Assembly (NCBI GenBank): GCA_964610885.1 | Contig: CAZSWR010000004.1 | Location: forward strand, 16,200-80,199 | Length of the DNA stretch: 64,000 nt | Direction of reading: 5' to 3' | From: an uncultured Hyphomicrobiales bacterium | Lineage (GTDB): Bacteria; Bacteroidota; Ignavibacteria; Kapaibacteriales; UBA2268 | Shown: positions 13,031-56,531 of the stretch, piece after piece | Layout: each line of letters starts with the position of its first letter | Numbering within the stretch: the stretch's first letter is position 1 | Translations under genes and position numbers: made by a program | Notes under the pieces: model-generated | Told to the model about the DNA's origin: nothing | Databases searched by the model: none | Seen by the model: only the letters and a program-made list of their open reading frames with translations

Positions 13031-13262
13031 AATACAACTCCGAATAATAATATAACACTTTGATTTATCGAAAAATATATAAAAATTCCATTGCATTTGC
13101 AGTAATGCACTTTCGTTAATAGTAATTTAATTAAAAAATAATGAATTGCCAAAGAATTTCAACACCTGGCAGGAGGAATATTTAGTTTGAAATTCGTAGT
13201 CTTCATGCTTTTTTTTACTGCCCCTTTTCTTGGAGCCTGTTGGAATAGTATAGTTCGGCCAT

Positions 13263-18869: not shown

Positions 18870-19046
18870 AATCCTATAATACATATTTTGTAAGATACGG
18901 TACTATTAGTTTTTATATAGATTTGATTCATTTGCAAATAATATAATATTTGTTTTTTGCGACAGAGCTTACTTTTCGTGTTTGTGAATGAGCAAAAATA
19001 ATGTTAAATTGTTAATTTATAATTAACTGTTTAGCAGTGATTGACA

Positions 19047-26356: not shown

Positions 26357-26400
26357 TTGTAGGGGTTCAAAATTTTGAACCCTTACATTAATTTTGCAAA
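26357..26400 (+). terminator. Palindromic hairpin / probable terminator after the PNPOx-like gene
   Basis: It contains the perfect 20-bp palindrome GGGTTCAAAATTTTGAACCC (26363-26382), extended by TGTAG/CTTACA and followed by the T-rich TTAATTTTG. Confidence 0.55.
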
Positions 26401-26423
26401 TTAAAAAATATTCACTAATTTTG
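26393..26423 (+). promoter_or_regulatory. Candidate Bacteroidetes-type sigmaA promoter (-33 TTTG / -7 TAnnTTTG) for the riboswitch-TBDR transcript
   Basis: TTTG at 26393-26396, a 19-nt spacer, then TAATTTTG at 26416-26423. The riboswitch P1 stem begins about 8 nt downstream. Confidence 0.45.
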
Positions 26424-26430
26424 TGGCAGT

Positions 26431-26516
26431 CCGTTGGAGGTGTTCCGGCGAAATAGCCGGGGCTGAGATGAAACTCCTCGAACCTGATCCGGATAATACC
26501 GGCGTAGGAAACACGG
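26431..26516 (+). promoter_or_regulatory. TPP (THI-box) riboswitch
   Basis: CCGTTGGAGGTG...GGGGCTGAGATGAAACTCCTCGAACCTGATCCGGATAATACCGGCGTAGGAAACACGG matches the conserved CUGAGA ... ACCUGAUCUGGAUAAUGCCAGCGUAGGGAA core of thiM-type TPP riboswitches. P1 closes as CCGU/ACGG. The element lies 110 nt upstream of the receptor ATG. Confidence 0.85.
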
Positions 26517-26627
26517 AGCAATTAATGCTTTTGGCGCCCTGCCCACTATATTGATTCTAACCAGATCAGTTCGTCCGACAACGGGAAAATTAATCGTTAT
26601 GTTAAATTTTCCTTGGTGGATGTACAA

Positions 26628-29021
26628 ATGTACTACAAAAAACTTCTTTCACGCATCGCTATCGCGGCCGCAATTGCCTCGCCCGCCCTGGCGAAGCAAC
26701 CCACGCAAATCGACACAAACCGTGTCGTCGTGGCTCCCAGCATCAACGTTACCACGAACCGCGCAACGCAAGGCATCTCCCCTGTCCCCTTCTCGGACAT
26801 GAACGCGCAGGAGATTAAATTCAACTACACAGTGCAGGACGTCCCCGCGCTAATTTCGGAAATGCCGTCCGTGGTGTTCTATTCGCAAAATGGCAACAAT
26901 ACCGGATACTCGAACCTGACACTGCGCGGCTTCGACCAGCGCCGCATCGCCGTGATGATCAACGGTATCCCGCAAAACGACCCCGAAGACCACAACGTCT
27001 ATTGGGTGGACTTCCCGGACATCACGTCCAGCTTGGACAATATCCAGGTGCAGCGCGGAGCCGGCATGGCCAACTATGGCTCGGCAGCGATTGGCGGCAG
27101 CGTGAACCTGACCACCTCGAACTTCGTCAACAAGCGCGGGTTCACCGCCATGACCGGCGTCGGAGTCCAGGAATTCGGGTACTCGGATCTCATGCAAGCC
27201 ACCACCGGCAAATTCTCGCTCGAGGCGTCCAGCGGCCTGATTAACGACCACGCTTTCTATGGCCGCCTCTCCAAGATCACGACCAACGGCTACAGAGACC
27301 GCTCCGGCAGCACTCTGTACAGCTTCTTCCTCAGCGCTGTCCGATTCGACAAGAACTTCTCCACGCAGATCAACGTCTTCGGCGGCCCGATCACCGATGA
27401 ATTGTGCTACACCGGCCTGCCGAAGTCATACATCGGCTCCACCGAACTCCGCCGCAAGAATCTGTCGTACTTCGCATACGATTCGACCGGCAAGAACGTC
27501 GTTTGGCCGAGCGAGCGCAGGCCACAGGAAAAGGAAGGCTTCTACCAACCGCACTACGAAATATTGAACAACTGGCAAATCTCCGACAATTTGGAGCTGA
27601 AAAGCGCCCTGTTCTATTACTCCGGCGAAGGTTATTACGACAACGACATTTCTTGGCTGTCGGCAAAATTCCTATTCACTAAAGAATTCGGCTGGGACTC
27701 GCCGCAAGGCCCAGTGAACGGCATTTACCGCGCAACAGTCGAGAACAGCCACGGCGGATGGATTCCCCGGCTTATTTGGAAAAACTTGGCAGGAGAAACC
27801 GTCATCGGTGCCGAAATCCGCTCGCACCGGTCGAAGCACTATGGCCAGCTGACCTATTCGGAGAATTATCCAGCCGGTTACGATCCCGATTTCAAGATTT
27901 ATTACTACGAAGGCGGGAAAGACGTGCTGTCGGGATTCCTGCGCCATCGCGCCGAATTCGGAAAATTGGCTCTGAGCGCAGAAGCGCAATTGGTCAACAA
28001 TACGTACCTGATCCAAAACGAGAAACATGGCACTCAATACACGAAATATGCCGTTGGGATTGGAGATTCCGTGGGCAATGGCGGCAAAATCTTCAGCTAC
28101 GATTACTTTTTCTTCAACCCGCGGCTCGGCGCCACCTACAAATTGGACGACAAAACCACGGTTTACTCCCAGATCGCCTACACGTCTCGCGAACCGAGGC
28201 TGCGCCAGCTCTATGCCGCCGAGGATGCCATCTTTGGAATGAAAGATACCTGCACGGCCATGCCTTCGTTTGAATACAAAAATGGCGTGAAGGGCATTTA
28301 CGACTTCTCGAAACCGCTACTGAAACCCGAGAAAATGCTCAATTTTGAATTGGGCGCGAACTATACGGATTCACGTTTCCAATTTGGCGTCAATGCCTAC
28401 TATATGGATTACCGCGACGAACTCGTTAAAAGCGGAATGGTGGACTACTACGGCAATCCAATCGAAGGCAACGCTCCGAAATCGCTGCACGCCGGCGTGG
28501 AATTGCAAGGCTCGGCAAATATTTACACGAAAGGCACGACCAGCGTTTTCTTCGCCGCGAACGCCACTATCTCGCACAATAGAATAGTTGATTACAAATA
28601 CCAGCTGGGCGATGGCGTTGTGGTTTCCTTGGACGACAACCCTGTCGCAGGCTTCCCCGACTTCATGGCGAACCTGAGGCTAACGGCGAACTTCGACCAA
28701 CTCCGCGTTTCGCTCTTCGGCAAATACACAGGCGAGAGCCGCACAGACAATTTCGGAGACATGCTCACGAACAACCAAACGCTTAAATCATTCTTGATCG
28801 CCAACGACAATTACTATGCCGACAACAAATTGGACGCCGCTTTCGTAATGAATGCCGATGTTTCGTACACACTCACGAACGCATTCACCTTCGAGCGCAT
28901 CCGTTTCTTCGCCCAAGCGAATAACATCTTCAACAAGCTCTACGCAGCCGGCGGCGAGGGCAAGGAGTTCTTCGTGGCCGCCGAACGAAACTACTTCTTC
29001 GGCATCGAGGTAGGATTCTGA
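26628..29021 (+). CDS. TonB-dependent outer-membrane receptor (predicted thiamine-related uptake, riboswitch-controlled)
   Basis: The start is set at ATG 26628 (MYYKKLLSRIAIAAAIASPALA signal). The plug domain includes NLTLRGFDQRRIAVMINGIPQND ... IQVQRGAGMANYGSAAIGGSVNL. A long beta-barrel ends in the aromatic C-terminus FFGIEVGF. Confidence 0.9.
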   Translation: MYYKKLLSRIAIAAAIASPALAKQPTQIDTNRVVVAPSINVTTNRATQGISPVPFSDMNAQEIKFNYTVQDVPALISEMPSVVFYSQNGNNTGYSNLTLRGFDQRRIAVMINGIPQNDPEDHNVYWVDFPDITSSLDNIQVQRGAGMANYGSAAIGGSVNLTTSNFVNKRGFTAMTGVGVQEFGYSDLMQATTGKFSLEASSGLINDHAFYGRLSKITTNGYRDRSGSTLYSFFLSAVRFDKNFSTQINVFGGPITDELCYTGLPKSYIGSTELRRKNLSYFAYDSTGKNVVWPSERRPQEKEGFYQPHYEILNNWQISDNLELKSALFYYSGEGYYDNDISWLSAKFLFTKEFGWDSPQGPVNGIYRATVENSHGGWIPRLIWKNLAGETVIGAEIRSHRSKHYGQLTYSENYPAGYDPDFKIYYYEGGKDVLSGFLRHRAEFGKLALSAEAQLVNNTYLIQNEKHGTQYTKYAVGIGDSVGNGGKIFSYDYFFFNPRLGATYKLDDKTTVYSQIAYTSREPRLRQLYAAEDAIFGMKDTCTAMPSFEYKNGVKGIYDFSKPLLKPEKMLNFELGANYTDSRFQFGVNAYYMDYRDELVKSGMVDYYGNPIEGNAPKSLHAGVELQGSANIYTKGTTSVFFAANATISHNRIVDYKYQLGDGVVVSLDDNPVAGFPDFMANLRLTANFDQLRVSLFGKYTGESRTDNFGDMLTNNQTLKSFLIANDNYYADNKLDAAFVMNADVSYTLTNAFTFERIRFFAQANNIFNKLYAAGGEGKEFFVAAERNYFFGIEVGF

Positions 29022-29038: not shown

Positions 29039-29077
29039 CATCCTCGCCCAAACACAACTAATGGGTTTGGCGAGGAT
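29039..29077. terminator. Hairpin between convergent genes (TBDR and the TonB_C gene)
   Basis: CATCCTCGCCCAAAC ... GTTTGGCGAGGATG forms a stem of about 13 bp with one bulge. It is positioned to serve both convergent transcripts, and the U-tracts are weak. Confidence 0.55.
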
Positions 29078-29171: not shown

Positions 29172-30497
29172 TCATTCCGCCCCAAATCGAATAGTAATTT
29201 TCGACGAACTGTCAATCGGTTTGCCATCTTTGTAGGCAGGCCTGAACAGATACTTCTTCGAGGTTTCAAGTGCGATCTGGTTCAGTTTATCTTCGCTGCT
29301 TTTCAGCACTTTGGCAGTTTGTACGTTTCCTTTGGAATCCACAGATACTTCCACCACGACGATACCTTCGGTGCCTTTCAGGCTTTCAGGTTTCTGTGGT
29401 TTTGCGGCCTTCAGCACTTGCGGATTCGCGTTTTCGATATAGAATTCACAATCTGATTTGTTGCCATTCGCGGATGGAGCCATCTCGCTCCGTGCCGATT
29501 CGTTCGATCGCGTCTGCCCGGGCGAAATCGCGTTGACTGTGGAATTCTCCTTGGTGGAGCAATCTGAGTTATCTTTTGACTTTGCGCTACTCGCTTCAAA
29601 CGGAACGGACGAATTCGACGTTGGGCATTCTTTATTTTCTGTGGTATTATTCGCGACTGTTTCCTCGGCGGTTTTGTTGCCCTTCAGCGCGGCAAAAACG
29701 GCAATCACCGCCACCAATACGACTACAGCAGCAATTGCAACAAAGCTTTTTGATGTTTTCCTTTTGATATCTCTTTCGGTTTCTTTCTCGCGGAATTCCA
29801 GCAGTATCATTCCATCGGAACCCGAAGCTCCGGGGAGCTGTTTCCTCAACTTCTCATGCTTCTTTTCGGTCGGGACCAAGATACTTTGCATCGACAAATT
29901 CTCTGGAAAATCGCTTGGAATTTCCGGAGAATTGGTAATGATAATCCGTGTGTTTGAAAGAACAGTAAACATGAGGAATTTTCTGACTCCTAAGCTCTTG
30001 TCCTCGGAATTGTCCACGGTCGGTGCATCGGCGCGAGAGAGGAAATGATAGAGATGTTCGTAAATCGCCCCTTTTCGCGTCTGAATGTCCACGAATACTT
30101 CGTCGGAATGGAACAGATAGCATTTATCGTCAATCTTCCAGACAGCGGCAAATGTATCGCTCGGAAGGCATTCAACTTTCTGCAACAGTTTTTCAAAGAA
30201 TTCATCGCTATCTTTATCAATTCTGTCGCCCTTGTGTTTAGCGGATTCCTCGAAGAATTGCATCGCTCGGCGAGCCGCCGGCTCAATCGATTCGCTACAA
30301 AACATGGCCAGCTCGCCGAATTTGCCCTCGACAACCATTCCAATTGGTTCGTTACCGGATCTCTTCATCGAGGATACGAAGGCCAACCCATCAGGGCAAT
30401 CATGATGGACACTTGCCATTTTCACAGTTTTTGACAGGTTGGTCGGGTCTGAACCCGCCAAATCAATAGCCTTCGATATTTTTTTCTTCACGCTCAT
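29172..30497 (-). CDS. TonB C-terminal-domain protein with a large N-terminal cytoplasmic domain
   Basis: 441 aa with no signal peptide. A ~240-aa soluble N-domain is followed by one TM (FVAIAAVVVLVAVIAVFAAL) and a Ser/Asn/Thr-rich linker. The C-terminal TonB_C-like fold reads GIVVVEVSVDSKGNVQTAKVLKSSEDKLNQIALETSKKYLFRPAYKDGKPI. Confidence 0.75.
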   Translation of the reverse strand: MSVKKKISKAIDLAGSDPTNLSKTVKMASVHHDCPDGLAFVSSMKRSGNEPIGMVVEGKFGELAMFCSESIEPAARRAMQFFEESAKHKGDRIDKDSDEFFEKLLQKVECLPSDTFAAVWKIDDKCYLFHSDEVFVDIQTRKGAIYEHLYHFLSRADAPTVDNSEDKSLGVRKFLMFTVLSNTRIIITNSPEIPSDFPENLSMQSILVPTEKKHEKLRKQLPGASGSDGMILLEFREKETERDIKRKTSKSFVAIAAVVVLVAVIAVFAALKGNKTAEETVANNTTENKECPTSNSSVPFEASSAKSKDNSDCSTKENSTVNAISPGQTRSNESARSEMAPSANGNKSDCEFYIENANPQVLKAAKPQKPESLKGTEGIVVVEVSVDSKGNVQTAKVLKSSEDKLNQIALETSKKYLFRPAYKDGKPIDSSSKITIRFGAE

Positions 30498-30512
30498 ATT
30501 CTGTTCGTTTCC

Positions 30513-32639
30513 TTATTTAATTGGAGTTTCCACAATTATATCGACAGTTCGGCAATAGAAACGGCCTTCGGGTATGTTGTTGTCGTATAATTCTTTCGAG
30601 CTGCCGACGCCAAGGGCTGACGAGTTTGCATGGTTTAGTGCTTTTTTCGCAGACATTGCCCTGTTCTGGCTGAGCTTTTGGTTGTGTTGTGCGTCTCCGG
30701 TTCTGTCGGTGTAGCCCGTGATCGTCATTTTAGAGTCTTTTTGCAATCTTTTTTTGATATGTTCCACGATTTTCTTGTTCCCAGCCTCGATTTCGTATTT
30801 ATTGAAATCGAAAAGAATCAGATTGTACCTGTCGATCTCCACATCGTTCTTTCTCTCTCTTCTTTTTTTGCTGACAGAGAGATATTCCACTGGCAGAAAT
30901 GTTGTAATGGATTTCGCCTGGAGTTGCTTGTCCTGGATTGTAAGCTCAACGTCAATTCTTTCGTCCAAGCTCGGAATTGTGATCTGGTTTTCGTTAAATT
31001 TCCAATCCACTGAGGTAGGCAAATTGGCAGATCCGGCCTGGGAGAAATTCGCTGACGAAAGGCCTTTCTGTTTCGCCTCGATGGTCCACGCCTTAAGCCC
31101 GGCATCTGCATTGGCTTTCGGATAGAATCGGGCAATGGGTGGATTTGCTTTCCTCAGCGTGTCCGAAAGGAAAACCGGTGCGAGAATTTCATATTCTTCG
31201 CTGTATAGCTCCACTCGCCTATTCTCTGCAATTTTGTCCTGCTCGGCTATCGGTGTCGATGCCTTTTCAGGTAGGTTACGTTTCTCCAGTTGCAACCTTG
31301 AGTCATCGATTTGCCAGACATCCGCGAGGTACTTCTTCACTTTCTCGGCTCTCCTCATCGACAATTCTGTGTTGTCTTCCTCGACAGCGATTCCGCTGTT
31401 GCAACCCGTAATTCGCAGTATTGCCGCCGGATGTTCGGTCATGCGGCGCCCCACGATATTCAAAATATGGTAATAAGTCTCCAACGTACTCGATTTCGAC
31501 AGGGATTTTATTTCAAAATTTTTAGCATCGCCGGGCGCCAAGGCAGTATATTTGGTTTGAATCTTGTCAGCATTATCCTCGAAAAAGACGTATGGCAGCA
31601 ATGGTTGCGTCCGGCTCGATATGAACTCCTCGACGAATATTTTCGCGGATTCGGTTTCTTGGCCCAAGCTATCGACGCCGAAAGCATCGATCCTGCCGGA
31701 AAGTGAGTACTTCTTTGCCGAAAAGACTGTGTCGGTGCGGTACGTGTACAGATACTCGGTTTCGACGTTGTCCTGAAGTTTTGTTTCCGATTTGTTGGTT
31801 GGCGCGCCCATGGCAAACCTTGCAATCGGCTCCGAGTTTTCTTTGTAAATAGTATCAATTTTGAAAATATTCTCTTTCCTTTTAATCAAATCCGAAGGCT
31901 CGTACGTCAGCGCCAAACCCAAACGGAGAGTATTAATATTCCATGATACGTCCGAGACCATCGAATTGAAATCGTAATAATAGGTCACTGTGGGCGAGAA
32001 ATAAAGGCTCTTTGCCCTATTCAGAGGCAATCCATAGCTCAAACCAATGATGCCGTATGCATTGAAGAAAGATGAATTGGGGATATCCCCCTCGCTGACG
32101 TTTCTCGTCCGGCCGATCGGATTGTTATTCTGATCGACAAAAGAGCCGTCAGGCCCGAGCAGTCTTTCCTTTTGATCGTAAGTGCTGGACACCTTGAAGG
32201 CCAGCCTCATTCCGAAATTGAGTTTCAAATTCTCGTATGGTTCGTAATAAACCATCGGATCGATGCCTACCTTCGTAAATGTCCCATTCAGGACGTGTTC
32301 GAAGGTGCTGTTGGTAACTGTATTGTTTATTATCACAACAGTCGGTTCTTCGCTCTTCATTTCGCCTGATTGGGTCATAAGGCTGGCGCGAAGCACCAAT
32401 CCGAACTGGCTGCTCATCGGCTTCGTGAGGAATCCGCCAATCGTTAGGCCGTTGCCCGATCCGTCGGTGAACTTCGGGCAACAGTTCGGGATGCCTTGGA
32501 GTTTGCTAAAGTCGGCATTGGTTTGGTCGAATCCATACTCGCCGAAAAGTCCATAAGCAATTCGGGAGTTGTGAGTGTTTTGTGAAAATGCTCCAAGTGT
32601 ACTAAAAAGCATCAAAATAGCGCAAATTGAATATTTCAT
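30513..32639 (-). CDS. OmpA-family outer-membrane protein (N-terminal beta-barrel-like half plus two OmpA_C peptidoglycan-binding modules)
   Basis: 708 aa with the signal peptide MKYSICAILMLFSTLGAFSQ. OmpA_C-like module 1 reads ITGCNSG...LSMRRAEKVKKYL...NRRVELY. Module 2 reads ITGYTDRTGDAQHNQKLSQNRAMSAKKAL. Confidence 0.8.
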   Translation of the reverse strand: MKYSICAILMLFSTLGAFSQNTHNSRIAYGLFGEYGFDQTNADFSKLQGIPNCCPKFTDGSGNGLTIGGFLTKPMSSQFGLVLRASLMTQSGEMKSEEPTVVIINNTVTNSTFEHVLNGTFTKVGIDPMVYYEPYENLKLNFGMRLAFKVSSTYDQKERLLGPDGSFVDQNNNPIGRTRNVSEGDIPNSSFFNAYGIIGLSYGLPLNRAKSLYFSPTVTYYYDFNSMVSDVSWNINTLRLGLALTYEPSDLIKRKENIFKIDTIYKENSEPIARFAMGAPTNKSETKLQDNVETEYLYTYRTDTVFSAKKYSLSGRIDAFGVDSLGQETESAKIFVEEFISSRTQPLLPYVFFEDNADKIQTKYTALAPGDAKNFEIKSLSKSSTLETYYHILNIVGRRMTEHPAAILRITGCNSGIAVEEDNTELSMRRAEKVKKYLADVWQIDDSRLQLEKRNLPEKASTPIAEQDKIAENRRVELYSEEYEILAPVFLSDTLRKANPPIARFYPKANADAGLKAWTIEAKQKGLSSANFSQAGSANLPTSVDWKFNENQITIPSLDERIDVELTIQDKQLQAKSITTFLPVEYLSVSKKRRERKNDVEIDRYNLILFDFNKYEIEAGNKKIVEHIKKRLQKDSKMTITGYTDRTGDAQHNQKLSQNRAMSAKKALNHANSSALGVGSSKELYDNNIPEGRFYCRTVDIIVETPIK

Positions 32640-32654
32640 TGAATTTTTCCTCTA

Positions 32655-35600
32655 TTATTTAATTACTCCAATACGCACACTGCTCACGACGCTTTCCGTC
32701 TTGAACGTACCAAAATACAAGCCCTGAGGGACGTCGCTAAGATCGATCGTGAGCACTCCGTTTTGCACTTTCTCCAATCGGGCAGACTTCACAGTATTGC
32801 CCAACACATCGGTAAGATTGAATTCGGCTTTCCCTTCGTCGGCGTTCGAGTATTCAATTGTAATCGTCTCGCCGGCCGGATTGGGCGTAACGCTGCGCAT
32901 CGCAGAGTGTAACGAACCGTTGACAAACCTCGGGCCGCCCTCCTTGCAAATATCTGCTATGCTCACCCTGCCGTCCTCCACTCCGATCGTGGCCACGGCG
33001 CCAACGGATGAATAATTGGAAAGCACCAAACTCGTGAATTCAGCATTACCAAGCGCAACTACGAACCGAACGTTGGTTAGCGTTTCGCCGGCAGTGCCAG
33101 TGGTGGAAACGGAAGTCAACGTTATCGTTTTAGTACCATTGTTTTCCACTTCGTTCGGGAAATCAAGTGCCTTGAGTATGGTCGAATTATACGAAAGGTC
33201 GAATGTGAATCCGGTTACTCCCGATGCAGACAAATAGTTTTGTTGGCTTAGGATTATCGGTATCCGCACGGTATCGCCCACGAAGGCAGTAGCCGTATCG
33301 GCGCGTAGCGTGGCCGAACATCCAGGCTGGTCCACAATGTTAATCAAACCATTCACTAACGTGATGGCGGCCGCTCCGCCGATTGGCAAAACATTGCGGA
33401 CAGTCAGAACCGTTAGAGTGCCGGGCGCACCGATTGCCCTAAAACTGACATTGGCCAAGACCTCACCGGCGGCTCCATTTGTTGCAATATTATCAAATCG
33501 CAAGTAGCGTAAATTACCCGTTTCCGGATAACTCGTCATGGCGACAGGTTCGGCAACCGATGCGTCGTACAATAATTCAAAGCTGAAAGCTGTTACGCCG
33601 GCAATGCCTAAATCCGAAGCAGCTTGCAATACAATTGGGACTGAAGCAGTCACTCCGGACGCTACCGATACCGAACCAGCCGAGATCGTGGCCGTTCCTG
33701 CCGGTTGCAGCGAGTTAATGCCCTCGCCGTAGAGCCTGACAATCGCCGGGGAGTTCGTTCCGATATAATTAAAATGCAGCGTGCCGGTTGTCCTGCCGAG
33801 TCCGGACGGCAAGAATTTCAAAGTCATCTTGGCCGTGTCGCCGGCGGGTATCGTCATGGAAGGAATAGTTTGAACTGTTGTGAAATCGCTGGCGTTGGGG
33901 CCTTCGTGCGCGATCGAAGTAATCGTTACCGGATTCGGGCTGACGTTTCTAATCGTGAAAGCATTCGCAGTATCCCGAAAATCGCCAAGCTCGACCTGCC
34001 CGAAATCAATTGTCGAACTGATCACTTCGATTTCTCTGGATACTCCATCGCCCGTTATAGTTTGCTTCAATGTGGAATCCGGCGAATAAATATTAATCGT
34101 CGCGGTTTGCACTCCGAGCGCGGCGGGATGGAATCTGAACTCAACCGCGCGAGTCCCTCCGGGTTTGAGTTCAAACGGGGCATTGCCAGACGTGATCGAG
34201 AACGGATTCGTTCCGGCAGCGGTGAAGCTTATCGAATCAATTCTTGTTTTGCTCGTGCCGGTGTTCGTAATGAATGCAGAAACAGTAGAGTCCTTAAATG
34301 TGCTAACGTAAACCTTTCCCATATTGATATCTTTGCTGACGAGAGTGGGCATAATTATCGCGAAAACATTGTCCGAGACGTCCGACTGGAGTTGCACCGG
34401 TGGTTCCAATTTTGCGATCCAGAAATCGCGGCCGCCCCTGTTATTGGAGAAATCGCCATCATTAGACGTAGCAAAACCGGCAATAGCAAAAGAAGCGTCG
34501 TCGTTTTTGATAATGCTCATAGCGCATTCATTTCCGCCGCTGCCGCCGATTGTTTTCTGCCAAACCATGGAGCCGTCTGCGCTTTTCAGCTTCGCAATCC
34601 ACCAATCACTCAGGCCATGGTTGCCGGTTACGTCCCCATCGACCGAATAAGAATAGCCGGCAACGCAAAGAGTGCCATCGCTTTCTTCGACTATCGAAGT
34701 GGCGTTGTCCCTATCGGAGCCGCCAAGAGTTTTCTCCCAAATAAGTGCGCCATCGGTAGATTGTACCTTTAGAATCCAATAATCATTTTGGCCATGGTTG
34801 CCGGTTACGTCCCCATCTGACGAAGCTGAATAGCCGGAAACAATATAATTGCCATCGTTGCTCTCGATAATGGAATTCGCAGTTTCGTTGCCGCTGCCGC
34901 CGTATGACTTCTTCCATACAATCCTGCCATCGGCCGGGTCGAGCTTGGCGATCCAATAATCATAGCCGCCTTTGTTCGCCAAGACATCTCCATCGGCCGA
35001 AGCCGAGGAGCCGGCCACGACGTAGTATCCGTCCTTGCTCTCCATTACCGAATAGGCATAGTCGCTACCGGTGCCGCCCAAGCATTTCGACCAAATAATA
35101 TCACCGTTCGTAGCGTTGAGTTTGGCCACCCAGTAATCGATGCCGCCTTTGTTCCCGCTAACGTTTCCATCGGTCGAATTTGTCCATCCCGATACGATAT
35201 AAGAGTTGTCTTTTCCTTCGGTGATCGAATAAACAGCATCGTCGCCGCTGCCGCCCAGATTTTTCTGCCAAATCATTCCCCCATCGGCATCGAGCTTCAC
35301 GACCCAGCAATCCGTTTTGCCCCAAGACGACGTTATCTGCCCATCTTTCGAGTCGCTTTCGCCAGCGACGACTATTGACCCGTCATCGCATTCGATTATG
35401 GAACGGGCAATGTCGTTTCCGCTGCCGCCGAGCCATTGTTGCCAAATCCTTCCACCATCAGTGGGACTTAGCCTCATCACCCAAAAATCACTTTTCCCTC
35501 TCTTCACCAATACGTCTCCGTCTTGGGAATCTGTGGAACCTGCCACGATGTACGAACCGTCGGCACATTTTGCAATGGACTCCAGATAATCCTCGCCGCT

Positions 35601-38234
35601 GCCGCCGAACGTCTTCTTCCATTGAATACCTGGAACGCCATTCGGCGCAATCAGCGGGACATCCCAGACACGCGCAATATTGGTCGTGTCAGTCAGAGAG
35701 TCCATCGTCACTAATCTATTTTCCACAGGCGACCAGACAGGATCCACACCCGGGACAATAGAAATCAAGCTGTAAGTGTTGGCATCATAGACTTTTGTGG
35801 ATTTGTTATCCGCAATGGCAAAAAACAGGCCTGAGTGATGCCAAGAAAAGACATTATTTATTTTCACAACACCAAATGTTCCAATTCCTCTTGCTATCAG
35901 GTTCATTAGCTCTTTGCCACTTTTGGCATCGAAAATTTTCGTTGGCATATCATTTTCGAAGACACCTTCTTCCCGAATTATTGCAAAAGATGAGCCGTTG
36001 GGGTTCCAAACAATGGTCTTATAATAATAAGAGGATAGGCTCTCAACATTAATTGATTTGAGCATCAAACCGTTAGACGTATTCCAAATCTTCGCAGTCC
36101 CGTCTTCGGAGGTGGTTACCAAAGTGCTCCCGTCGGGATTCCATGCCACTTGTTGGACCCACGAGGGGTGGCTGAGCGTGTGCAGAATGCTCCCTGTATT
36201 GGCATCGAATATTTTCGCCGTGCTGTCGCAGTCGGCAATTGCCAAGCGGTCGTCAATTGGGCTCCAAGCGATGTGCATAATTAACGGTCGAGTTGCCTCA
36301 TTGGCCGGATCCAACTTGCGGAGCAAAGTGCCTGTATTGCCATCCCATACCTGGACCAATCCATTATTTGTTACGTGGGCAATTTTGTTTCCGTCCATAT
36401 TCCACTCCACATTAAATCGGGGATCATGCCATAGATTTTGTCTTGATGTTTCGCCAAGGACAAAAAGCCGTTCGCCAGTTTGTACGTTCCAAATATCGAC
36501 CTCGCCATTTCCCCTGCCTGTGGCCAATCGCGTGCCGTCAGGACTCCAAGACAAACTGGAAATATCAAAAGGATTGGGGCCATCATAGTAATAATAATGA
36601 ATTGAATCTCCAGTGGACGCATTCCACGCTGAAATTATCAAAGGGCTCTCATCGCTAAAACGAGAAATCGAAGCAAGCCGCGTGCCATCAGGACTCCATT
36701 TTGTCTCGTTCATTTGAAGTGGAAATATTTTCGAATTGTAATGAAAATCTGCATTAAATTCGGAGATCAGCGTTGGCGACACCTGTTCCTGCACCCTGAC
36801 CAAGCAATGGCCGCTGGGCGGTTTGGGGATGTTTTTCCAATTCCATTTCATCCCCGATGCCGAATCCGTGAGTAGGCTCCATGTGGAGCCTCCATCTGTC
36901 GAGTACTCAATCCCGACGACATCTTGGGGCAGTATGCCCTCCCACGTAATGATGGAATCGGTTGCAACCACGTAGCTCTCGCCGCCATTCGGCGAGACGA
37001 CTCTCAGCGTGGGCGTTTCGATTTTGTGACCCAGGAATCCTCCCCTCGCATAGATGCTTGCAGGGCAAAGGTCAGTTATCAAATCAATTTTAGTATAAAT
37101 AATGCTGCTGTCCGTGGGAGTATAGGTCAGAGTAATACTTCGTGATTCGCCTTGGTTCAACGAAAAGCTGGAGGGCGAAATCGTGAAATGGTTGTCCGAG
37201 GTGGCGAATCCCGAAACGGTAAAGGCAGAGTTAACAGCCGTTACGGTTAGCGTAGTGTCGTGGCCAACGCCCGGTTTCTTGTTTCGGAAGAAGACACCCG
37301 ACGGAACGATGTCCAAATAGGCGACCGAATTCTCCGGCGGTACGTATGAAAACTTGTCCGAAGCGCCATTTGCCACAAGCCGCGCCTCGCCGTCGTTCCG
37401 CGAGAAGCTACAATTCAAACCACTTTGCCATTCGATGGTGCACGGTTCGATTCCCTGCGCAATGAATTGAATACGTTTATATACTTCCTTTGCCTCGTCG
37501 ATAGTCGTAACGTTTTCGAACCATTCGGCTCCGGTCTGTTCGGACAAATCGCGGAGGATTTTGGGGCAAGGCATATTGAGCGTAACGCAATATACGAAAG
37601 CATTCTGTGCTTGGGCCTGCGCGATGATCGCGGGTATATCCGGCTCGAAGTTCGGTTGGCCATCGGACAGGAAAATGATTACTTTTTTGTATTTGGCTTT
37701 ATTCAATATTTTGAATCCGCCGGTCAGCTGGTCGAGGAATGCCGGCTCGTAATTCGTGCCGTCCTCCCCGGCCATGGCGTTGATTGCGGCCAGAAGCGAT
37801 GCTTTGTCTGATGTGAAGTCTCGGTCAATATAGCTCGATCCGTTGAAACTTGTGATAGCGCATTCGCAAGTGCTTTGCGGCAATCCGTTAATCCAAGCGG
37901 TAGCGGCTCCCTTGGCCATATCGAGGTTTTTGAAACCGCCCAAGTCCCACTCCATCGAACCGGAAACGTCCATTATGAGCAACGAAGAAATCGGGACAGC
38001 CGCGGCCGAAGGGCAAGTAACGTTTAGCACGCTTCTGGCCTTCCAACCTTCGGTAATCGCGAAGTCGGCAGGATTTAAGTTGTTAATTCTTTGGTTGCTG
38101 GCGTCTGTAGCGAAGAATTTCGCTTTGACAGTCGGGAATGCCGAAGCGTCGATGCCGAACATATCCAACGATTGGGATCGGGCGCTAACAATTGTTAATA
38201 GCATCGCGATACAAATGCTCAAGTACTTTTTCAT
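32655..38234 (-). CDS. Giant multidomain T9SS cargo: vWA, PD40/WD40-like blades, 7-repeat propeller, Ig-like modules, two cohesin-like modules, T9SS CTD
   Basis: The start is set at ATG 38234 (MKKYLSICIAMLLTIVSARSQ); the 80-codon upstream extension in the track is AT-rich junk. The vWA MIDAS is IMDVSGSM ... GTNYEPAF ... FLSDGQPN. Repeated WSPDGTRLA-type blades follow, then seven ~58-aa W-x-K-x-x-GGSG...DG...VAG...DGDV...G..D.W..KL repeats. Two cohesin-like modules carry SVPIVLQAASDLGIAGVTAFSFELLYD and VRIPIILSQQNYLSASGVTGFTFDLSYN. The last 86 aa fit a T9SS CTD. Confidence 0.85.
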   Translation of the reverse strand: MKKYLSICIAMLLTIVSARSQSLDMFGIDASAFPTVKAKFFATDASNQRINNLNPADFAITEGWKARSVLNVTCPSAAAVPISSLLIMDVSGSMEWDLGGFKNLDMAKGAATAWINGLPQSTCECAITSFNGSSYIDRDFTSDKASLLAAINAMAGEDGTNYEPAFLDQLTGGFKILNKAKYKKVIIFLSDGQPNFEPDIPAIIAQAQAQNAFVYCVTLNMPCPKILRDLSEQTGAEWFENVTTIDEAKEVYKRIQFIAQGIEPCTIEWQSGLNCSFSRNDGEARLVANGASDKFSYVPPENSVAYLDIVPSGVFFRNKKPGVGHDTTLTVTAVNSAFTVSGFATSDNHFTISPSSFSLNQGESRSITLTYTPTDSSIIYTKIDLITDLCPASIYARGGFLGHKIETPTLRVVSPNGGESYVVATDSIITWEGILPQDVVGIEYSTDGGSTWSLLTDSASGMKWNWKNIPKPPSGHCLVRVQEQVSPTLISEFNADFHYNSKIFPLQMNETKWSPDGTRLASISRFSDESPLIISAWNASTGDSIHYYYYDGPNPFDISSLSWSPDGTRLATGRGNGEVDIWNVQTGERLFVLGETSRQNLWHDPRFNVEWNMDGNKIAHVTNNGLVQVWDGNTGTLLRKLDPANEATRPLIMHIAWSPIDDRLAIADCDSTAKIFDANTGSILHTLSHPSWVQQVAWNPDGSTLVTTSEDGTAKIWNTSNGLMLKSINVESLSSYYYKTIVWNPNGSSFAIIREEGVFENDMPTKIFDAKSGKELMNLIARGIGTFGVVKINNVFSWHHSGLFFAIADNKSTKVYDANTYSLISIVPGVDPVWSPVENRLVTMDSLTDTTNIARVWDVPLIAPNGVPGIQWKKTFGGSGEDYLESIAKCADGSYIVAGSTDSQDGDVLVKRGKSDFWVMRLSPTDGGRIWQQWLGGSGNDIARSIIECDDGSIVVAGESDSKDGQITSSWGKTDCWVVKLDADGGMIWQKNLGGSGDDAVYSITEGKDNSYIVSGWTNSTDGNVSGNKGGIDYWVAKLNATNGDIIWSKCLGGTGSDYAYSVMESKDGYYVVAGSSASADGDVLANKGGYDYWIAKLDPADGRIVWKKSYGGSGNETANSIIESNDGNYIVSGYSASSDGDVTGNHGQNDYWILKVQSTDGALIWEKTLGGSDRDNATSIVEESDGTLCVAGYSYSVDGDVTGNHGLSDWWIAKLKSADGSMVWQKTIGGSGGNECAMSIIKNDDASFAIAGFATSNDGDFSNNRGGRDFWIAKLEPPVQLQSDVSDNVFAIIMPTLVSKDINMGKVYVSTFKDSTVSAFITNTGTSKTRIDSISFTAAGTNPFSITSGNAPFELKPGGTRAVEFRFHPAALGVQTATINIYSPDSTLKQTITGDGVSREIEVISSTIDFGQVELGDFRDTANAFTIRNVSPNPVTITSIAHEGPNASDFTTVQTIPSMTIPAGDTAKMTLKFLPSGLGRTTGTLHFNYIGTNSPAIVRLYGEGINSLQPAGTATISAGSVSVASGVTASVPIVLQAASDLGIAGVTAFSFELLYDASVAEPVAMTSYPETGNLRYLRFDNIATNGAAGEVLANVSFRAIGAPGTLTVLTVRNVLPIGGAAAITLVNGLINIVDQPGCSATLRADTATAFVGDTVRIPIILSQQNYLSASGVTGFTFDLSYNSTILKALDFPNEVENNGTKTITLTSVSTTGTAGETLTNVRFVVALGNAEFTSLVLSNYSSVGAVATIGVEDGRVSIADICKEGGPRFVNGSLHSAMRSVTPNPAGETITIEYSNADEGKAEFNLTDVLGNTVKSARLEKVQNGVLTIDLSDVPQGLYFGTFKTESVVSSVRIGVIK
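34398..35615 (-). repeat. In-frame tandem coding repeat (7 x ~174 nt) inside the giant gene
   Basis: The protein-level units begin IQWKKTFGGSGEDY, IWQQWLGGSGNDI, IWQKNLGGSGDDA, IWSKCLGGTGSDY, VWKKSYGGSGNET, IWEKTLGGSDRDN and VWQKTIGGSGGNE. Coordinates were derived by counting residues back from the stop. Confidence 0.7.
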
Positions 38235-38600
38235 GATGAAACCACAATATATATAAAAATTTTCTATCAGACTACCGGTTAGAGTACAACAAACAGAAGT
38301 AAATACTTTGAAGCAAATTGCAGGTTTGGAATATGAAATATTTCTTTGTATGTAAGAATTGGAAATAGTATTCCATTCTTTGAGTCCTTGGAAAATCCAG
38401 ACCAGCACTTTGGGAGAACGCAATGAAGTTACAAATATATATAAAAAAGGAATAAATACCAAATAGGAATTCAAGCAGCCTATCGTCTTGTACTATTTGG
38501 AATTTGTGGCCGGTGGCCCGAGGGGGCTTTATCCCGCTCCAACAATAATACAACCACATTCTGTGAGTTATCGGCAGGTTTTGATTTGTTCCGCACGACA

Positions 38601-38679: not shown

Positions 38680-39702
38680 TTAGAGCGAATCGCAGTATTT
38701 GCGTTCGGTTCTGTTTTTGAAAGCTGCCTTGTGGTATGCGTAGCCGGCGATGAGAGGCATTGCAATTGTTGCCTCGGAGTACACCATTTGTTCGAAAGTG
38801 GTTTCCACTTTGCCCCAAGAGCTTGCTTCCTTGAGGGTCGAGCCGGAGAGGCCGCCGTCGCGTTCGTCGGCAACGGTGATCTGGACGGCATATTTGTGCA
38901 TAGGCGCTTCGACGTCGAGCACTTCGCAGGCCACCACGATGTCTTGTGTGAAGTTTTTGGGCACGCCGCCACCGATCATTAGGATACCCGAATCTTTGGA
39001 TTGCATTTTGATGCGAGTCAGCTCGAGGAAGTCCTTCGCGCTATCGATCGAAACGTGGGATTCGGGATTGTTGAATTGGTGATGCACGAAGCCGAATCCG
39101 GCCGAGCAATCCGAGAAAGCCGGGCAGAAGATAGGTACGCGCTTTTCGTAGCAAGTGCGGACGACGGAACCTTCGCCTTTTTTATTGAGCACGAGCCATT
39201 TGCCCATCTCTTCGATGAACTCGCGCGAGCTGAATGGGCGGTGTTCGAGCGAATTGCAGATCTCGGCGATTGTCATATCGCAGACGCGGAGGTCTTCTTC
39301 GTCGATAAACGTATCGTAGATGCGGTCAACCATTTGTTCGCGAAGCACGTTATCGTCCACGAAGGGCGTACCCTGATAGTGATGGAAACCGAGGGCTTCG
39401 AGGTAGTCCTGGTCGACGATGTTTGCGCCGGTGGAAACGATTGCGTCCACCATATTGTTGCGCACCATGTCCACGACAACGTCTTTGAGGCCGGCGCTGA
39501 AAAGCGAACCGGCGAGAGTAAGAATAACGGTACAATCCTTGTCGGCGACCATTTTTTCGAAAATTGTAGCTGCGCGGTGCAAGTTGCGCGCTTGGAATGC
39601 CATTTTGCCCATTGCATCGACGAGAGGTACGACGTTGTGAGCTTTGATGTCGATGTGTTCGACGAGGCGATTAGGATTCAGAATGTCTTTTTTCTCAGGC
39701 AT
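38680..39702 (-). CDS. Deoxyhypusine synthase family protein (bacterial DHS / homospermidine-synthase-like)
   Basis: 340 aa with TLAGSLFSAGL, STGANIVDQD and the catalytic-lysine context LKEASSWGKVE (eukaryotic DHS has EAVSWGK). Confidence 0.8.
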   Translation of the reverse strand: MPEKKDILNPNRLVEHIDIKAHNVVPLVDAMGKMAFQARNLHRAATIFEKMVADKDCTVILTLAGSLFSAGLKDVVVDMVRNNMVDAIVSTGANIVDQDYLEALGFHHYQGTPFVDDNVLREQMVDRIYDTFIDEEDLRVCDMTIAEICNSLEHRPFSSREFIEEMGKWLVLNKKGEGSVVRTCYEKRVPIFCPAFSDCSAGFGFVHHQFNNPESHVSIDSAKDFLELTRIKMQSKDSGILMIGGGVPKNFTQDIVVACEVLDVEAPMHKYAVQITVADERDGGLSGSTLKEASSWGKVETTFEQMVYSEATIAMPLIAGYAYHKAAFKNRTERKYCDSL

Positions 39703-40613: not shown

Positions 40614-41456
40614 GTGAACTGGAACCAAGAACTAACACAAGATGACTCAAGCCGTCAGCAGGCTGTCCGCGAGTGCGGTGCTCTACCGCGCCACATCGCT
40701 GTGATTATGGACGGCAATGGCCGTTGGGCCGTCGAAAGGAATTTCTCGCGCTCCGAGGGCCACCGCCAAGGAATCGAGACAGTACGCGAAATCGTCAAGG
40801 CTTCGTCCCAGATCGGCGTCAAATATCTTACTCTTTATGCGTTCTCTGTCGAAAATTGGAAACGCCCCTCGGCCGAGGTTGGCGTCCTGATGAAACTTCT
40901 TGAGCTATACCTGCGTAAGGAAATTGACGAATTGCACAAGAATAACGTCAGGTTTATGACTATTGGCCGGCTGAGTTCGCTCCCGAAAGCCATTCAGAAA
41001 CTTGTTATCAACTCCACCGAAAAGACAAAAAACAATACGGGCCTGACGCTCACTCTCGCCCTCAGCTACAGCGGCCGGTGGGACATCGTCCGGGCAGTGC
41101 AAATGATTGCCCTCGACGTCCGCCGCGGCAAAGTCTCGCCCGAAGATATCAACGAAGAGTTCTTTTCGAACCAATTGCAAACAAACGGTATCCCCGACCC
41201 AGACCTGATGATCCGCACCAGCGGAGAAATGCGGCTTAGCAACTTCTTGCTCTGGGAAATGGCTTACGGCGAAATGTACATCTGCGATAAGTTTTGGCCC
41301 GATTTCTCCCGCGAAGACTTATATAAAGCTATAGAAAATTATGCCGGACGCGAAAGGCGATTTGGCAAAACTTCCGCTCAAATTACTAACGAAGAAGAGA
41401 ATGAAAGTAAAAAATTTTCAATACAAAGAGTCATTAATGCTATCAAAACGAAGTAA
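40614..41456 (+). CDS. uppS: Isoprenyl transferase (undecaprenyl diphosphate synthase)
   Basis: 280 aa starting at GTG, with HIAVIMDGNGRWA, LTLYAFSVENWKRP and RTSGEMRLSNFLLWEMAY. Confidence 0.9.
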   Translation: MNWNQELTQDDSSRQQAVRECGALPRHIAVIMDGNGRWAVERNFSRSEGHRQGIETVREIVKASSQIGVKYLTLYAFSVENWKRPSAEVGVLMKLLELYLRKEIDELHKNNVRFMTIGRLSSLPKAIQKLVINSTEKTKNNTGLTLTLALSYSGRWDIVRAVQMIALDVRRGKVSPEDINEEFFSNQLQTNGIPDPDLMIRTSGEMRLSNFLLWEMAYGEMYICDKFWPDFSREDLYKAIENYAGRERRFGKTSAQITNEEENESKKFSIQRVINAIKTK

Positions 41457-43800: not shown

Positions 43801-43867
43801 TTAGTTAATTTTGCTGATTATATAAATTTGACAATCAAGTAAACATTTTTTATCTTAGGAGTTCATT

Positions 43868-44392
43868 ATGTCGAAAATCAAACTGTGCATCATTGCCATC
43901 ACCTGCATGGCACTATTCTCGGGTAAAGCATTTGCTCAAAAAGGCTTCATCGTGGGCGTCGTGGACGTGGAAAACGTCGCCAAACAATTGAAAGAAACCG
44001 AAGACGCCGACAAACTTATCCGCGATATGTCGAAGATTCTGAATGATTCGCTCGTCAAACTTCAGGAAGACTTCCAGAAAAGAGTCGAACAATATCAGAA
44101 ACAACAAGGAATGATGTCGCAAGACCAGAAGACAAAAGAAGAAACTTCGCTCAAAGGCACACAAGACCAATTAGTGCAATTGCGCCAAAGCATGCTCGAC
44201 GAAATCGGCAAAAAACGCGAAGAATTGCTCACACCGATTCGCGCCAAAGTCAAAGATGCTATTGATGCAGTCGCCAAAGACGAAGGCATGAGCCTCGTAC
44301 TCGAAAAGGGCGCAACCAACTCCGTAGTCCTCTATTTCGAGGATAAATACGACATTACTTTCCGCGTGATCGATAGAATCAAACGCAAATAA
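43868..44392 (+). CDS. skp: OmpH/Skp-family periplasmic chaperone, copy 1
   Basis: 174 aa with a signal peptide, a coiled-coil Q/K/E-rich core and the typical position after bamA. Confidence 0.8.
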   Translation: MSKIKLCIIAITCMALFSGKAFAQKGFIVGVVDVENVAKQLKETEDADKLIRDMSKILNDSLVKLQEDFQKRVEQYQKQQGMMSQDQKTKEETSLKGTQDQLVQLRQSMLDEIGKKREELLTPIRAKVKDAIDAVAKDEGMSLVLEKGATNSVVLYFEDKYDITFRVIDRIKRK

Positions 44393-44607
44393 TTGCAAAG
44401 CGAAATCTACGAAGGCAGGGCCAATCGCTCGAGGTGAAATCCCACTGAGGGTTCCGGCGGCAGTGGCCCTGCCAATTCTTTGAGACGCTTGAACTGATTT
44501 TCGGTTCGGCAGGCCGGGCCGAAAATTGTTTCAAATACTCACCACGGAGATAAATGGCAAAAACAGTACTTCGTTACCGGGTATGTTAAAAAATTGAAAA
44601 TCAAAAG

Positions 44608-56530: not shown

Positions 56531-56531
56531 A

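Follow-up and report, generated by a model that had tools for sequence, protein, structure and literature searches.

The locus lies in a 64,000-nucleotide (64-kb) stretch of DNA, hereafter the window, and comprises three open reading frames on the minus strand: gene 1 (32655-38234), gene 2 (30513-32639) and gene 3 (29172-30497), which encode proteins of 1859, 708 and 441 residues, respectively, the frame of gene 3 being intact. The length of the gene 1 product is counted from the ATG that opens its signal peptide, MKKYLSICIAMLLTIVSARSQS; the open frame extends upstream of this ATG at 38234, as far as 38474, and orthologue alignments begin at residue 1 of the 38234 start. Both spacers, between genes 1 and 2 and between genes 2 and 3, measure 15 nt and have SD-like motifs rich in purines, and the three coding sequences and their gaps are thus as described in an earlier reading of this DNA (hereafter the original prediction).

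At the 3′ end of the operon we found an intrinsic terminator hairpin with a U-rich tail (29039-29077, minus strand; dG -22.8 kcal/mol, z -3.5). Terminator-like matches inside the operon numbered 8, against 14.7 expected from shuffles, and none was convincing, in agreement with the earlier statement that the sole strong hairpin follows the last gene. Because the hairpin is positioned between gene 3 and a convergent gene for a TonB-dependent receptor (TBDR), it may serve both strands. The receptor gene (26613-29021) encodes a Plug domain and a barrel, and has a TPP riboswitch and a promoter candidate of its own.

A scan for sigma-70 promoters yielded fewer matches than in shuffled sequence, and a Bacteroidota-type pattern was used instead. 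The consensus TTTG-N20-TAtaTTTG is known from the Bacteroides and Flavobacterium literature, and its occurrence at 38432-38463 (minus strand), ∼200 nt 5′ of the gene 1 ATG, provides a candidate promoter. The pattern has just three matches in the 64 kb, a count not above chance (1.6 expected), all of them intergenic and correctly oriented 5′ of genes. The 15-nt spacers, the single candidate promoter and the single strong terminator make genes 1 to 3 look like a single, predicted transcription unit.

The gene 1 product

From the N- to the C-terminus, the gene 1 product consists of a signal peptide, a VWA/MIDAS domain, a WD40 propeller, a seven-repeat propeller, Ig-like modules, two cohesin-like modules and a type A CTD. 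The VWA domain (residues 85-253; 37476-37982, minus strand) was matched by the Pfam families VWA_2 and VWA with 44 and 37 bits, respectively, and its MIDAS motif DxSxS can be read intact in the translation (LIMDVSGSM). The propeller region (34407-36707, minus strand) contains WD40-type blades at residues ∼510-830, followed at residues 868-1276 by seven repeats of ∼58 residues each, counted in the translation, of the pattern GGSGxD...DGDV...DxWIAKL. The membrane-proximal part (32670-34382, minus strand) comprises Ig-like modules of the choice-of-anchor-D/ASH type (residues 1285-1505; choice_anch_D, 82.7 bits), the cohesin region (residues ∼1516-1775; PF00963, 35.3 bits, cut-off 24) and the CTD (residues 1782-1855). 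These domain searches agree with the view of gene 1 as a T9SS-destined VWA giant with propellers, Ig modules and cohesins.

The CTD is of type A (TIGR04183, 29.2 bits, cut-off 23; Por_Secre_tail PF18962, 38 bits, cut-off 27), and no match to the type B sorting domain (CHU_C/TIGR04131) was listed for gene 1. A Sec signal peptide combined with a C-terminal type A sorting domain identifies the protein as T9SS type A cargo. Core T9SS genes (SprA/Sov, PorK-N, PorU/V) were not found within the 64-kb window. Proteins with a CTD are plentiful both in the window and at related loci, which indirectly favours the presence of a T9SS machinery in the genome.

The gene 2 product

The gene 2 product starts with a signal peptide and continues with a predicted outer-membrane (OM) β-barrel (residues 28 to ∼268), a β linker, a first OmpA_C domain (346-482), an Ig-like sandwich (483-590) and a second OmpA_C domain (591-708). 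Pfam located PF00691 in two stretches, and the AF2 model (pLDDT 90.5) contains a small N-terminal barrel and two OmpA_C domains; both concur with the signal peptide, barrel-like N-half and two OmpA_C modules first noted. In Foldseek searches, the top matches were OprF and OmpA C-domains (TM 0.7-0.8) and the barrels of OmpA and Ail; the barrels of OmpT, Pla and OpcA were also retrieved. The strands of the modelled barrel are long (24-29 residues), as in OmpT, Pla and OpcA.

The best-conserved portion of the barrel is its predicted extracellular loops, whose position outside the cell is a prediction from barrel topology. The most conserved barrel element is the predicted loop L1 (residues 45-56, xLxGIPNCCPxF; 32472-32507, minus strand), in which the mean top-residue frequency is 0.67 and P51, C53 and C54 are each conserved at 80-90% or more.

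An OM β-barrel together with an OmpA_C peptidoglycan-binding domain characterizes the OmpA family, and gene 2 shares with OmpA and OprF the small N-terminal barrel and the C-terminal peptidoglycan-binding domain. It differs from these major OM proteins in being twice as large, in the length of its barrel strands, in having two OmpA_C domains together with an additional β linker and Ig-like module, in the conservation of its predicted surface loops and in its systematic pairing with T9SS giants. Two more specific assignments were rejected: the exchanger_TraB model of Myxococcus (NF033763) reached 28.4 bits (cut-off 700) and the PorE model (NF052230) 23 bits (cut-off 600), each in the OmpA_C part only. 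Outside OmpA_C, neither PorP/SprF nor PorE is related to gene 2 in sequence, as judged by Pfam and NCBIfam. The TraA/TraB outer-membrane exchange system of Myxococcus has a large, polymorphic receptor on the surface, whose operon also encodes an OmpA-domain OM protein, its putative anchor. The present locus likewise places a surface giant and an OmpA-domain OM protein in one operon; it differs in secretion route, domains and phylum, OmpA_C being the sole match to TraB.

Pairing of genes 1 and 2 in related genomes

The gene 2 family is multi-copy, with at least 542 relatives in the genome collection. We analysed 87 gene-2 relatives in related MAGs, 80 of the loci being the best-scoring of the at least 542 matches; genes at these loci were called crudely, as longest ORFs. 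In this best-scoring sample, a same-strand gene-1-like gene directly adjoins 48 of the 87 relatives in either order: upstream in 34 cases and downstream in 17, three of them having both; a VWA head is present in 24 of these neighbours. The gaps mostly range from -4 to 67 nt, and stop and start codons of paired genes often overlap (gap of -4 nt). Gene-1-like genes account for 30% of adjacent genes, compared with 0.9% of those at a distance of at least three positions (p=1.6e-58). Accordingly, the adjacency is strongly non-random and recurrent. The N-terminal 470 residues of gene 1 are 38-45% identical to giants adjoining gene-2 relatives at more than 14 loci.

Several cargo classes are found next to gene-2 relatives, namely VWA, delta-60-type propeller and cohesin-only proteins, and several genomes contain multiple paralogous pairs or OmpA-giant-OmpA arrays. 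About 40% of the relatives in the best-scoring sample lack a recognizable adjoining giant. Pairing with a VWA giant was seen for 6/10 closer relatives versus 20/77 others, which is a trend only (Fisher p=0.06). Among the close relatives, L004 is solitary, without a paired giant, and L002 has as its 5′ neighbours a gene of 326 residues and an Ig giant that shows no BLAST similarity to gene 1. This conserved adjacency makes it very probable that the giant and the OmpA protein work together.

The gene 3 product and its distribution

Gene 3 was predicted to encode a single-pass, N-in membrane protein without a signal peptide, consisting of a cytoplasmic domain (residues 1-241), a transmembrane segment (251-271), a linker (272-355) and a TonB_C domain (370-438). 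This arrangement is the one originally proposed, including the unrecognized head of ∼240 residues. The only hydrophobic segment, SFVAIAAVVVLVAVIAVFAAL (residues 251-271), is preceded by 250 cytoplasmic residues, has a positive-inside N-flank (7 K/R vs 1) and contains neither a His nor an SxxxH motif. TonB energy transducers carry the motor-contact motif SxxxH (SHLS) in their N-terminal transmembrane helix (PMC12204202). The linker spans 83 residues, is rich in Ser, Asn, Glu and Thr and, at 4.8% Pro, is not proline-rich as in TonB. The TonB_C domain (29184-29390, minus strand) was matched by PF03544 at residues 374-438 with 48.1 bits (cut-off 24.6), by TIGR01352 with 41 bits and, in the PDB, by TonB2 (2k9k, E 7e-4). 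It is also the sole credible part of the AF2 model, which was computed from a two-sequence alignment (pLDDT 38.9 overall, 70-84 for the TonB_C segment). ExbB/ExbD/TolQ/TolR/MotA-type Pfam domains are absent from sizeable ORFs of the 64-kb window; tonB and exbBD often lie at separate loci (PMC12204202). Gene 3 is probably not a PMF-energized TonB.

The N-terminal domain (residues 1-241; 29775-30497, minus strand) is an orphan. Neither the single sequence nor a profile matched anything in Pfam or the PDB at E≤10; in particular, ZnR-, GYF- and FHA-type domains were not detected by Pfam at this threshold in residues 1-241 of either homologue, and the gene 3 sequence contains no CxxC pairs. An anti-sigma/FecR-like identity, the kind of well-known family match that had been named as evidence against the original prediction, was rejected, with no match in Pfam, the PDB or NCBIfam and no sigma-factor gene among the neighbouring ORFs. 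A PP2C-like (pseudo)phosphatase, an idea that arose from visual reading of the sequence and the order of AF2 secondary-structure elements, was likewise discarded: hhalign of the two-sequence N-domain alignment against PstP (2cm1) and tPphA (2j82) returned a probability of 0.2%. No PP2C proteins for a better profile were found among the collected sequences.

A phmmer search of the N-terminal domain against 1.84 billion representative proteins yielded a sole match, P0002, which is 54% identical to gene 3, aligns without gaps over the 241 columns of the N-domain and likewise has no His in its transmembrane helix. The P0002 gene starts 16 nt after the OmpA gene of the second organism. The C-terminus of that OmpA protein is 90% identical to gene 2, with 38 synonymous versus 10 non-synonymous codon changes. 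We rejected a recombination breakpoint between the OmpA gene and gene 3: DNA identity falls gradually, which, together with the many synonymous changes in the OmpA fragment, points to different constraint and not to a mosaic.

No TonB_C or gene-3-like ORF occurs in the 10 kb on either side of 84 related loci, where ten sampled downstream genes are unrelated housekeeping or mobile genes. Synteny in relatives, on which the original trio was to be judged, therefore holds for genes 1 and 2 and largely fails for gene 3. The conserved unit is a two-gene pair and not a trio; since gene 3 is limited to two organisms, conservation does not extend to the proposed trans-envelope machine of three parts, whereas the conserved adjacency upholds the giant/OmpA partnership that formed part of it.

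Discussion

Holding of T9SS cargo by an OM barrel that is encoded by an adjacent gene and coupled to an OmpA_C peptidoglycan binder has been described; anchors of this kind serve type B cargo, as in PG1035-PorP-PorE of P. gingivalis and SprB-SprF of F. johnsoniae (PMC9143113). The original prediction that no equivalent had been described in T9SS-bearing bacteria overlooked these complexes. As in the PorP/PorE systems, the gene for a T9SS surface protein adjoins that of an OM β-barrel, an OmpA_C module is present (there, it fixes non-mobile complexes to the wall), and a genome may contain several paralogous cargo/anchor gene pairs. In contrast to them, gene 2 bears neither a PorP_SprF nor a PorE signature, fuses the barrel to a peptidoglycan binder with two OmpA_C domains and is paired with a CTD of type A instead of type B; in addition, the known systems belong to Bacteroidia and Flavobacteriia, the pair described here to Ignavibacteria/Kapabacteria.

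We lean, with modest confidence, towards a single operon whose core is a two-gene cassette widespread in Ignavibacteria/Kapabacteria, and in which a T9SS adhesin and its OM/peptidoglycan anchor are joined by gene 3 as a young accessory. Gene 1 would form a very long surface adhesin whose N-terminal, metal-dependent VWA head is held distally on a stalk of propellers, Ig modules and cohesins. By analogy with the PorP/PorE systems, we infer that gene 2 is the cognate envelope anchor, whose small, tall-stranded barrel, with the Cys-Cys loop and other predicted surface loops that are unusually conserved, would hold or position the giant at the surface. Its two periplasmic OmpA_C domains would tie the complex to peptidoglycan. 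Gene 2 may thus be the functional match of a PorP-like barrel and a PorE-like OmpA_C lipoprotein, fused, non-homologous and serving type A cargo. Against an anchor stands the classical attachment of type A cargo to lipopolysaccharide, via PorU (PMC9143113), and not to a protein. For gene 3 we infer, in all its parts, the role of a recent, fast-evolving and lineage-restricted inner-membrane addition to the cassette. Its periplasmic TonB_C domain would most likely dock by strand addition, either to a portion of gene 2 within the periplasm or to another OM protein, and this docking would join the anchored adhesin to the orphan domain in the cytoplasm, as a tether or a signalling route.

The pair might recur for a reason unconnected with anchoring, gene 2 acting either as a dedicated helper in the secretion or assembly of very large T9SS cargo or as a general structural OmpA-like porin that was duplicated along with the cargo genes; under both possibilities, gene 3 would be a young gene unrelated to the pair. 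The occurrence of both gene orders and several cargo classes, the ∼40% of gene-2 relatives without a recognizable neighbouring giant and the multi-copy nature of the family would all suit such a role. The conserved predicted surface loops and the tight coupling (gap of -4 nt), however, favour a specific protein-protein partnership over a generic porin, and two peptidoglycan-binding modules are better suited to a static anchor than to a transient chaperone; we therefore give this explanation little credence. Equally slight is the probability that we attach to a bolder version of the anchor reading, in which the barrel-2xOmpA family would constitute unrecognized dedicated anchors for type A T9SS giants that recognize their cargo through the conserved loops with their vicinal Cys-Cys pair; at this locus, a TonB_C protein with a 240-residue head of novel fold would add an integrin-like link working in either direction.

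The remaining alternatives concern gene 3. An obligate trans-envelope machine of all three products, in which a TonB-like protein energizes or regulates the VWA adhesin via the OmpA-barrel protein, was modelled on Agl-Glt of Myxococcus, where the VWA adhesin CglB works with the OM proteins GltA/B/K/H and the TonB-like proteins GltG/GltJ (PMC9946355, PMC11135422). Common to both systems are a VWA adhesin, an OM barrel and a single-pass protein of the TonB_C type whose cytoplasmic portion is sizeable; the co-directional genes are tightly packed before one terminator, the junction between genes 2 and 3 is retained in the sole known relative, an 83-residue linker could let TonB_C reach OM proteins, and a TolA/TonB-like transducer for PorE-like OM-peptidoglycan tethers has been speculated upon (PMC12204202). 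Yet the analogy is weak. The adhesin is an 1859-residue T9SS cargo and CglB an OM lipoprotein; the head of gene 3 is not of the ZnR/GYF type of GltJ, of the FHA type or of any other known domain family; neither AglRQS/TolQR-type motor genes nor glt-like genes were found in the 64-kb window, and the same holds for genes of the ExbB/ExbD/TolQ/MotA type. The transmembrane helix without His or SxxxH and the low proline content of the linker also speak against energization, and gene 3 is not conserved with the pair: its absence from the 84 other loci, with its N-domain in a single relative among the 1.84 billion representatives, means that the pair works without it almost everywhere. We consider an obligate machine unlikely. 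Still less do we believe that gene 3 is a specialized TonB paralogue for the convergent TBDR, or for TBDRs in general, that is merely co-transcribed with the adhesin pair. Its TonB_C domain is bona fide, tonB is frequently apart from exbBD (PMC12204202), the TBDR gene directly adjoins gene 3 with a terminator region common to both, and the protein resembles canonical TonB and TolA in being N-in and single-pass, with a linker that spans the periplasm and TonB_C as its C-terminal fold. The TBDR gene is, however, convergent and separately regulated, by its own promoter candidate and TPP riboswitch, whereas gene 3 is packed translationally behind the OmpA gene in both organisms. Moreover, a 240-residue cytoplasmic domain in place of a short stub, a Ser/Asn-rich, non-proline linker and the missing SxxxH are atypical of a working TonB.

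If the reading of the pair as adhesin and anchor is true, T9SS cargo with a type A CTD could use gene-linked protein anchors besides attachment to lipopolysaccharide, and the cargo-barrel-peptidoglycan-binder logic known from Porphyromonas and Flavobacterium would reach, in a fused and non-homologous form, a deep-branching sister lineage. It would also provide a simple rule for predicting wall-anchored giant adhesins in uncultured Kapabacteria/Ignavibacteria. Gene 3, which is restricted to two organisms and hence not a general mechanism, is a rare natural combination of TonB_C with an orphan cytoplasmic domain in predicted co-transcription with such an anchor, and could offer a means of testing whether PorE-like tethers communicate with TonB/TolA-like proteins, as has been speculated in the literature.

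Organization of the three genes

The giant-adhesin gene (gene 1, 38234->32655, 1859 aa), the barrel-2xOmpA gene (gene 2, 32639->30513, 708 aa) and the TonB_C gene (gene 3, 30497->29172, 441 aa) lie on the minus strand at the positions originally predicted. Both spacers measured 15 nt, as had been claimed, and contain purine-rich SD-like motifs. The open frame of gene 1 extends to 38474; we chose the ATG at 38234, where a canonical signal peptide starts and where orthologue alignments begin at residue 1. The upstream neighbour, a deoxyhypusine synthase gene (38680-39702), has a GC-rich hairpin and T-run of its own behind it, visible in the sequence. A candidate Bacteroidota-type promoter, TTTG-N20-TAtaTTTG, was matched at 38463-38432 (minus strand); the window contains three matches to this pattern, each upstream of a gene and none within the trio, a number not above chance. 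The strong hairpin reported after the last gene (29039-29077) has a folding energy of -22.8 kcal/mol (z -3.5) and a U-rich tail behind it, and the reported lack of hairpins between the genes agrees with internal terminator-like matches that are weak and fewer than in shuffled sequence. Taken together, the spacers, the promoter candidate, the end hairpin and the weakness of the internal terminator-like matches make a single transcription unit the natural reading of the sequence.

Architecture of gene 1 and gene 2

Profile and structure matches showed the predicted domain content of all three proteins to be accurate throughout. In gene 1, aa 85-253 form a VWA domain whose sequence retains an intact DxSxS MIDAS motif. 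WD40-type blades cover about aa 510-830, and aa 868-1276 consist of seven repeats of ~58 aa each; a pair of choice-of-anchor-D/ASH Ig modules occupies aa 1285-1505. Cohesin (PF00963) was matched at 35 bits, and a T9SS sorting domain of type A (TIGR04183) at 29 bits, above its cut-off of 23.

Gene 2 has two OmpA_C domains by sequence. Its AF2 model, built from a 110-sequence alignment, is confident (pLDDT 90.5) and reveals the order signal peptide, small barrel with several strands of 24-29 residues, beta linker, OmpA_C-1, Ig-like sandwich and OmpA_C-2. Foldseek matched the model to OprF/OmpA C-domains (TM ~0.8) and to the barrels of Ail, OmpA, OmpT, Pla and OpcA. At least 297 full-length matches (34-55% identity) carry the labels Ignavibacteria, Kapaibacterium or Chlorobiota. 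At least 542 relatives occur in the genome collection, frequently with several copies in one genome. The most conserved barrel elements are the predicted extracellular loops L1 (xLPGIPNCCPxF, aa 45-56) and L3 (GTFxD...RxRN). Outer-membrane proteins usually show the opposite pattern; on the inferred loop topology, this conservation fits a conserved surface partner. The nearly invariant 'PNCCP' of the first predicted surface loop (32472-32507, minus strand) contains a vicinal Cys-Cys pair, which is conserved across 110 family members (alignments A2/A3).

Pairing of gene 1 and gene 2 in related genomes

Synteny was analyzed in 84 related loci, 80 of which are the top-scoring subset of gene 2 matches; most are MAG contigs, some mislabelled. 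ORFs were called crudely by a longest-ORF heuristic, and the gene 1 modules and gene 3 of the window served as queries. By BLAST at 1e-5, a criterion that misses divergent giants, 48 of 87 gene-2-family genes have an immediate same-strand neighbour resembling gene 1 modules (34 upstream and 17 downstream, both sides in 3 loci). The gaps are mostly -4 to 67 nt, and 24 of these neighbours carry a VWA head; for the more similar heads, identity is 38-45% across 470 aa. Gene-1-like matches were obtained for 30% of adjacent genes versus 0.9% of genes at least 3 positions away (p=1.6e-58). No gene-3-like or TonB_C-like ORF was found within +/-10 kb of the 84 loci (tblastn 1e-5; phmmer --max E<=10). 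The ten downstream genes sampled there have nothing in common with gene 3 and include a glycosyltransferase, phosphofructokinase, DUF1016/YhcG and glucose dehydrogenase. Given this recurrent adjacency and the absence of gene 3, the conserved unit is the giant/OmpA pair, and its extension to the trio is young and lineage-restricted; a conserved trans-envelope trio is not supported.

Five related loci contain OmpA-giant-OmpA or alternating arrays (L059 3599-11998; L082 3570-12022; L009 9869-18254; L002 1-12130; L073 1-12025), each with one far more divergent OmpA paralogue (26-37% identity). In two different genomes a DUF1016/YhcG-type nuclease-like gene lies between the OmpA gene and the VWA giant (L006 12170-13198; L010 4771-5295), which suggests repeated insertion at this junction.

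Rarity and character of gene 3

Gene 3 contains one hydrophobic segment (aa 251-271); the 7 K/R residues before it and the 1 after it indicate an N-in topology. The protein also has a linker of 83 aa, rich in Ser/Asn/Glu and with 4.8% Pro, and a bona fide TonB_C domain. A word-indexed search of 5.8 billion proteins returned only gene 3 itself and one homologue, P0002 (54% identical), which was also the sole match of the orphan N-domain (aa 1-241) in an exhaustive phmmer search of 1.84 billion representatives. P0002 is located on a 1.7-kb contig from the sample that also holds the window organism (Logan SRR9878565; L001 / L086); two gene 3-bearing species therefore co-occur. An OmpA gene ends 16 nt upstream of P0002, so one related species has retained the gene 2-gene 3 junction. 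Over its last 100 residues this OmpA protein shares 90% identity with gene 2, and the codons differ by 38 synonymous and 10 non-synonymous changes; comparison with the 54% for gene 3 implies that gene 3 evolves much faster.

The N-domain, in which no motif had been recognised, matched nothing in Pfam or PDB even at E<=10. The original prediction had named membership of a known family, such as the anti-sigma factors, as one opposing outcome; no anti-sigma, FecR, ZnR, GYF or FHA signature was found in the head. A degenerate PP2C fold was rejected (hhalign against two solved PP2C sequences, 0.2% probability), and the AF2 model from two sequences was unusable (pLDDT 39).

Other loci in the window

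A second VWA-headed T9SS giant (14286-18869, plus strand, 1527 aa; VWA, Ig modules, Por_Secre_tail) has a head 25% identical to that of gene 1. Downstream of it come genes for a TerB-domain protein (19041-20003) and for two small OMP_b-brl barrels (20131-20802 and 20830-21507, all plus strand); the locus may represent another way of combining a giant with an OM barrel. A third T9SS cargo gene (10133-13096, minus strand, 987 aa; ASH/DUF1573 Ig module and Por_Secre_tail) has no adjoining OmpA-type gene. The class II fumarase/aspartase-type lyase at 22674-24542 (minus strand; Lyase_1 and FumaraseC_C) carries an N-terminal cyclic-nucleotide-binding domain (aa 34-121), an unusual fusion which suggests that a TCA-cycle-type enzyme is under cNMP control. 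A type II R-M pair (55547-57548, minus strand), comprising a BsuBI/PstI-type restriction endonuclease beside a C5 cytosine methylase, sits in the lowest-GC stretch of the window (0.418 at 56-58 kb) and may have been acquired horizontally. The region 40614-45378 (plus strand) is an ordinary envelope-biogenesis cluster in the order uppS, bamA (5 POTRA domains and Omp85), two tandem OmpH/Skp genes (43868-44392 and 44608-45378) and lpxD, with a promoter-pattern match (43783-43813) directly before the first skp.

Proposed function

The model with the best support is a pairing of adhesin and anchor. Gene 1 would be exported through the T9SS and present its VWA head at the distal end, and gene 2 would supply the OM barrel and two peptidoglycan-binding modules; the rival reading for gene 2 is a non-anchoring role. 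Most plausibly, the TonB_C domain of gene 3 would dock on a periplasmic element of the adhesin/anchor complex and link the orphan cytoplasmic domain to it.

The obligate energised trio machine originally proposed competes with this model. Contact of TonB/TolA with the motor is described as requiring an SxxxH motif (PMC12204202). The gene 3 TM helix has no His and therefore lacks this motif, the gene 3 linker, unlike that of TonB, is not Pro-rich, and the 64-kb window contains no ExbB/ExbD/TolQ-type genes; these features argue, though not decisively, against gene 3 being a canonical energised TonB. Gene 3 belongs to the broad class of single-pass proteins with a TonB_C domain, here with an orphan head. 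Alternatively, gene 3 could be a TonB paralogue for the convergent TonB-dependent receptor (26613-29021, plus strand; Plug and barrel). The receptor gene lies just after a TPP (thiamine pyrophosphate) riboswitch (26426-26528, plus strand; Rfam RF00059, 66 bits), itself just preceded by a Bacteroidota-type promoter match (26393-26423, plus strand), and because of the riboswitch the receptor is probably a thiamine-regulated outer-membrane transporter.

For the adhesin/anchor pair there is a precedent: type B T9SS cargo is held by PorP-like barrels from adjacent genes, and PorE-like OmpA_C lipoproteins additionally tether the non-mobile type B cargo to the wall (PMC9143113). In contrast to these anchors, the non-homologous gene 2 would unite the barrel-holder and wall-fixer roles in one protein, and would do so for type A rather than type B cargo. 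A limited literature search found no published description of the cassette in Ignavibacteria/Kapabacteria; the gene 1/gene 2 pair is a variant of a known theme, in which T9SS cargo is combined with a gene-linked OM/PG anchor.
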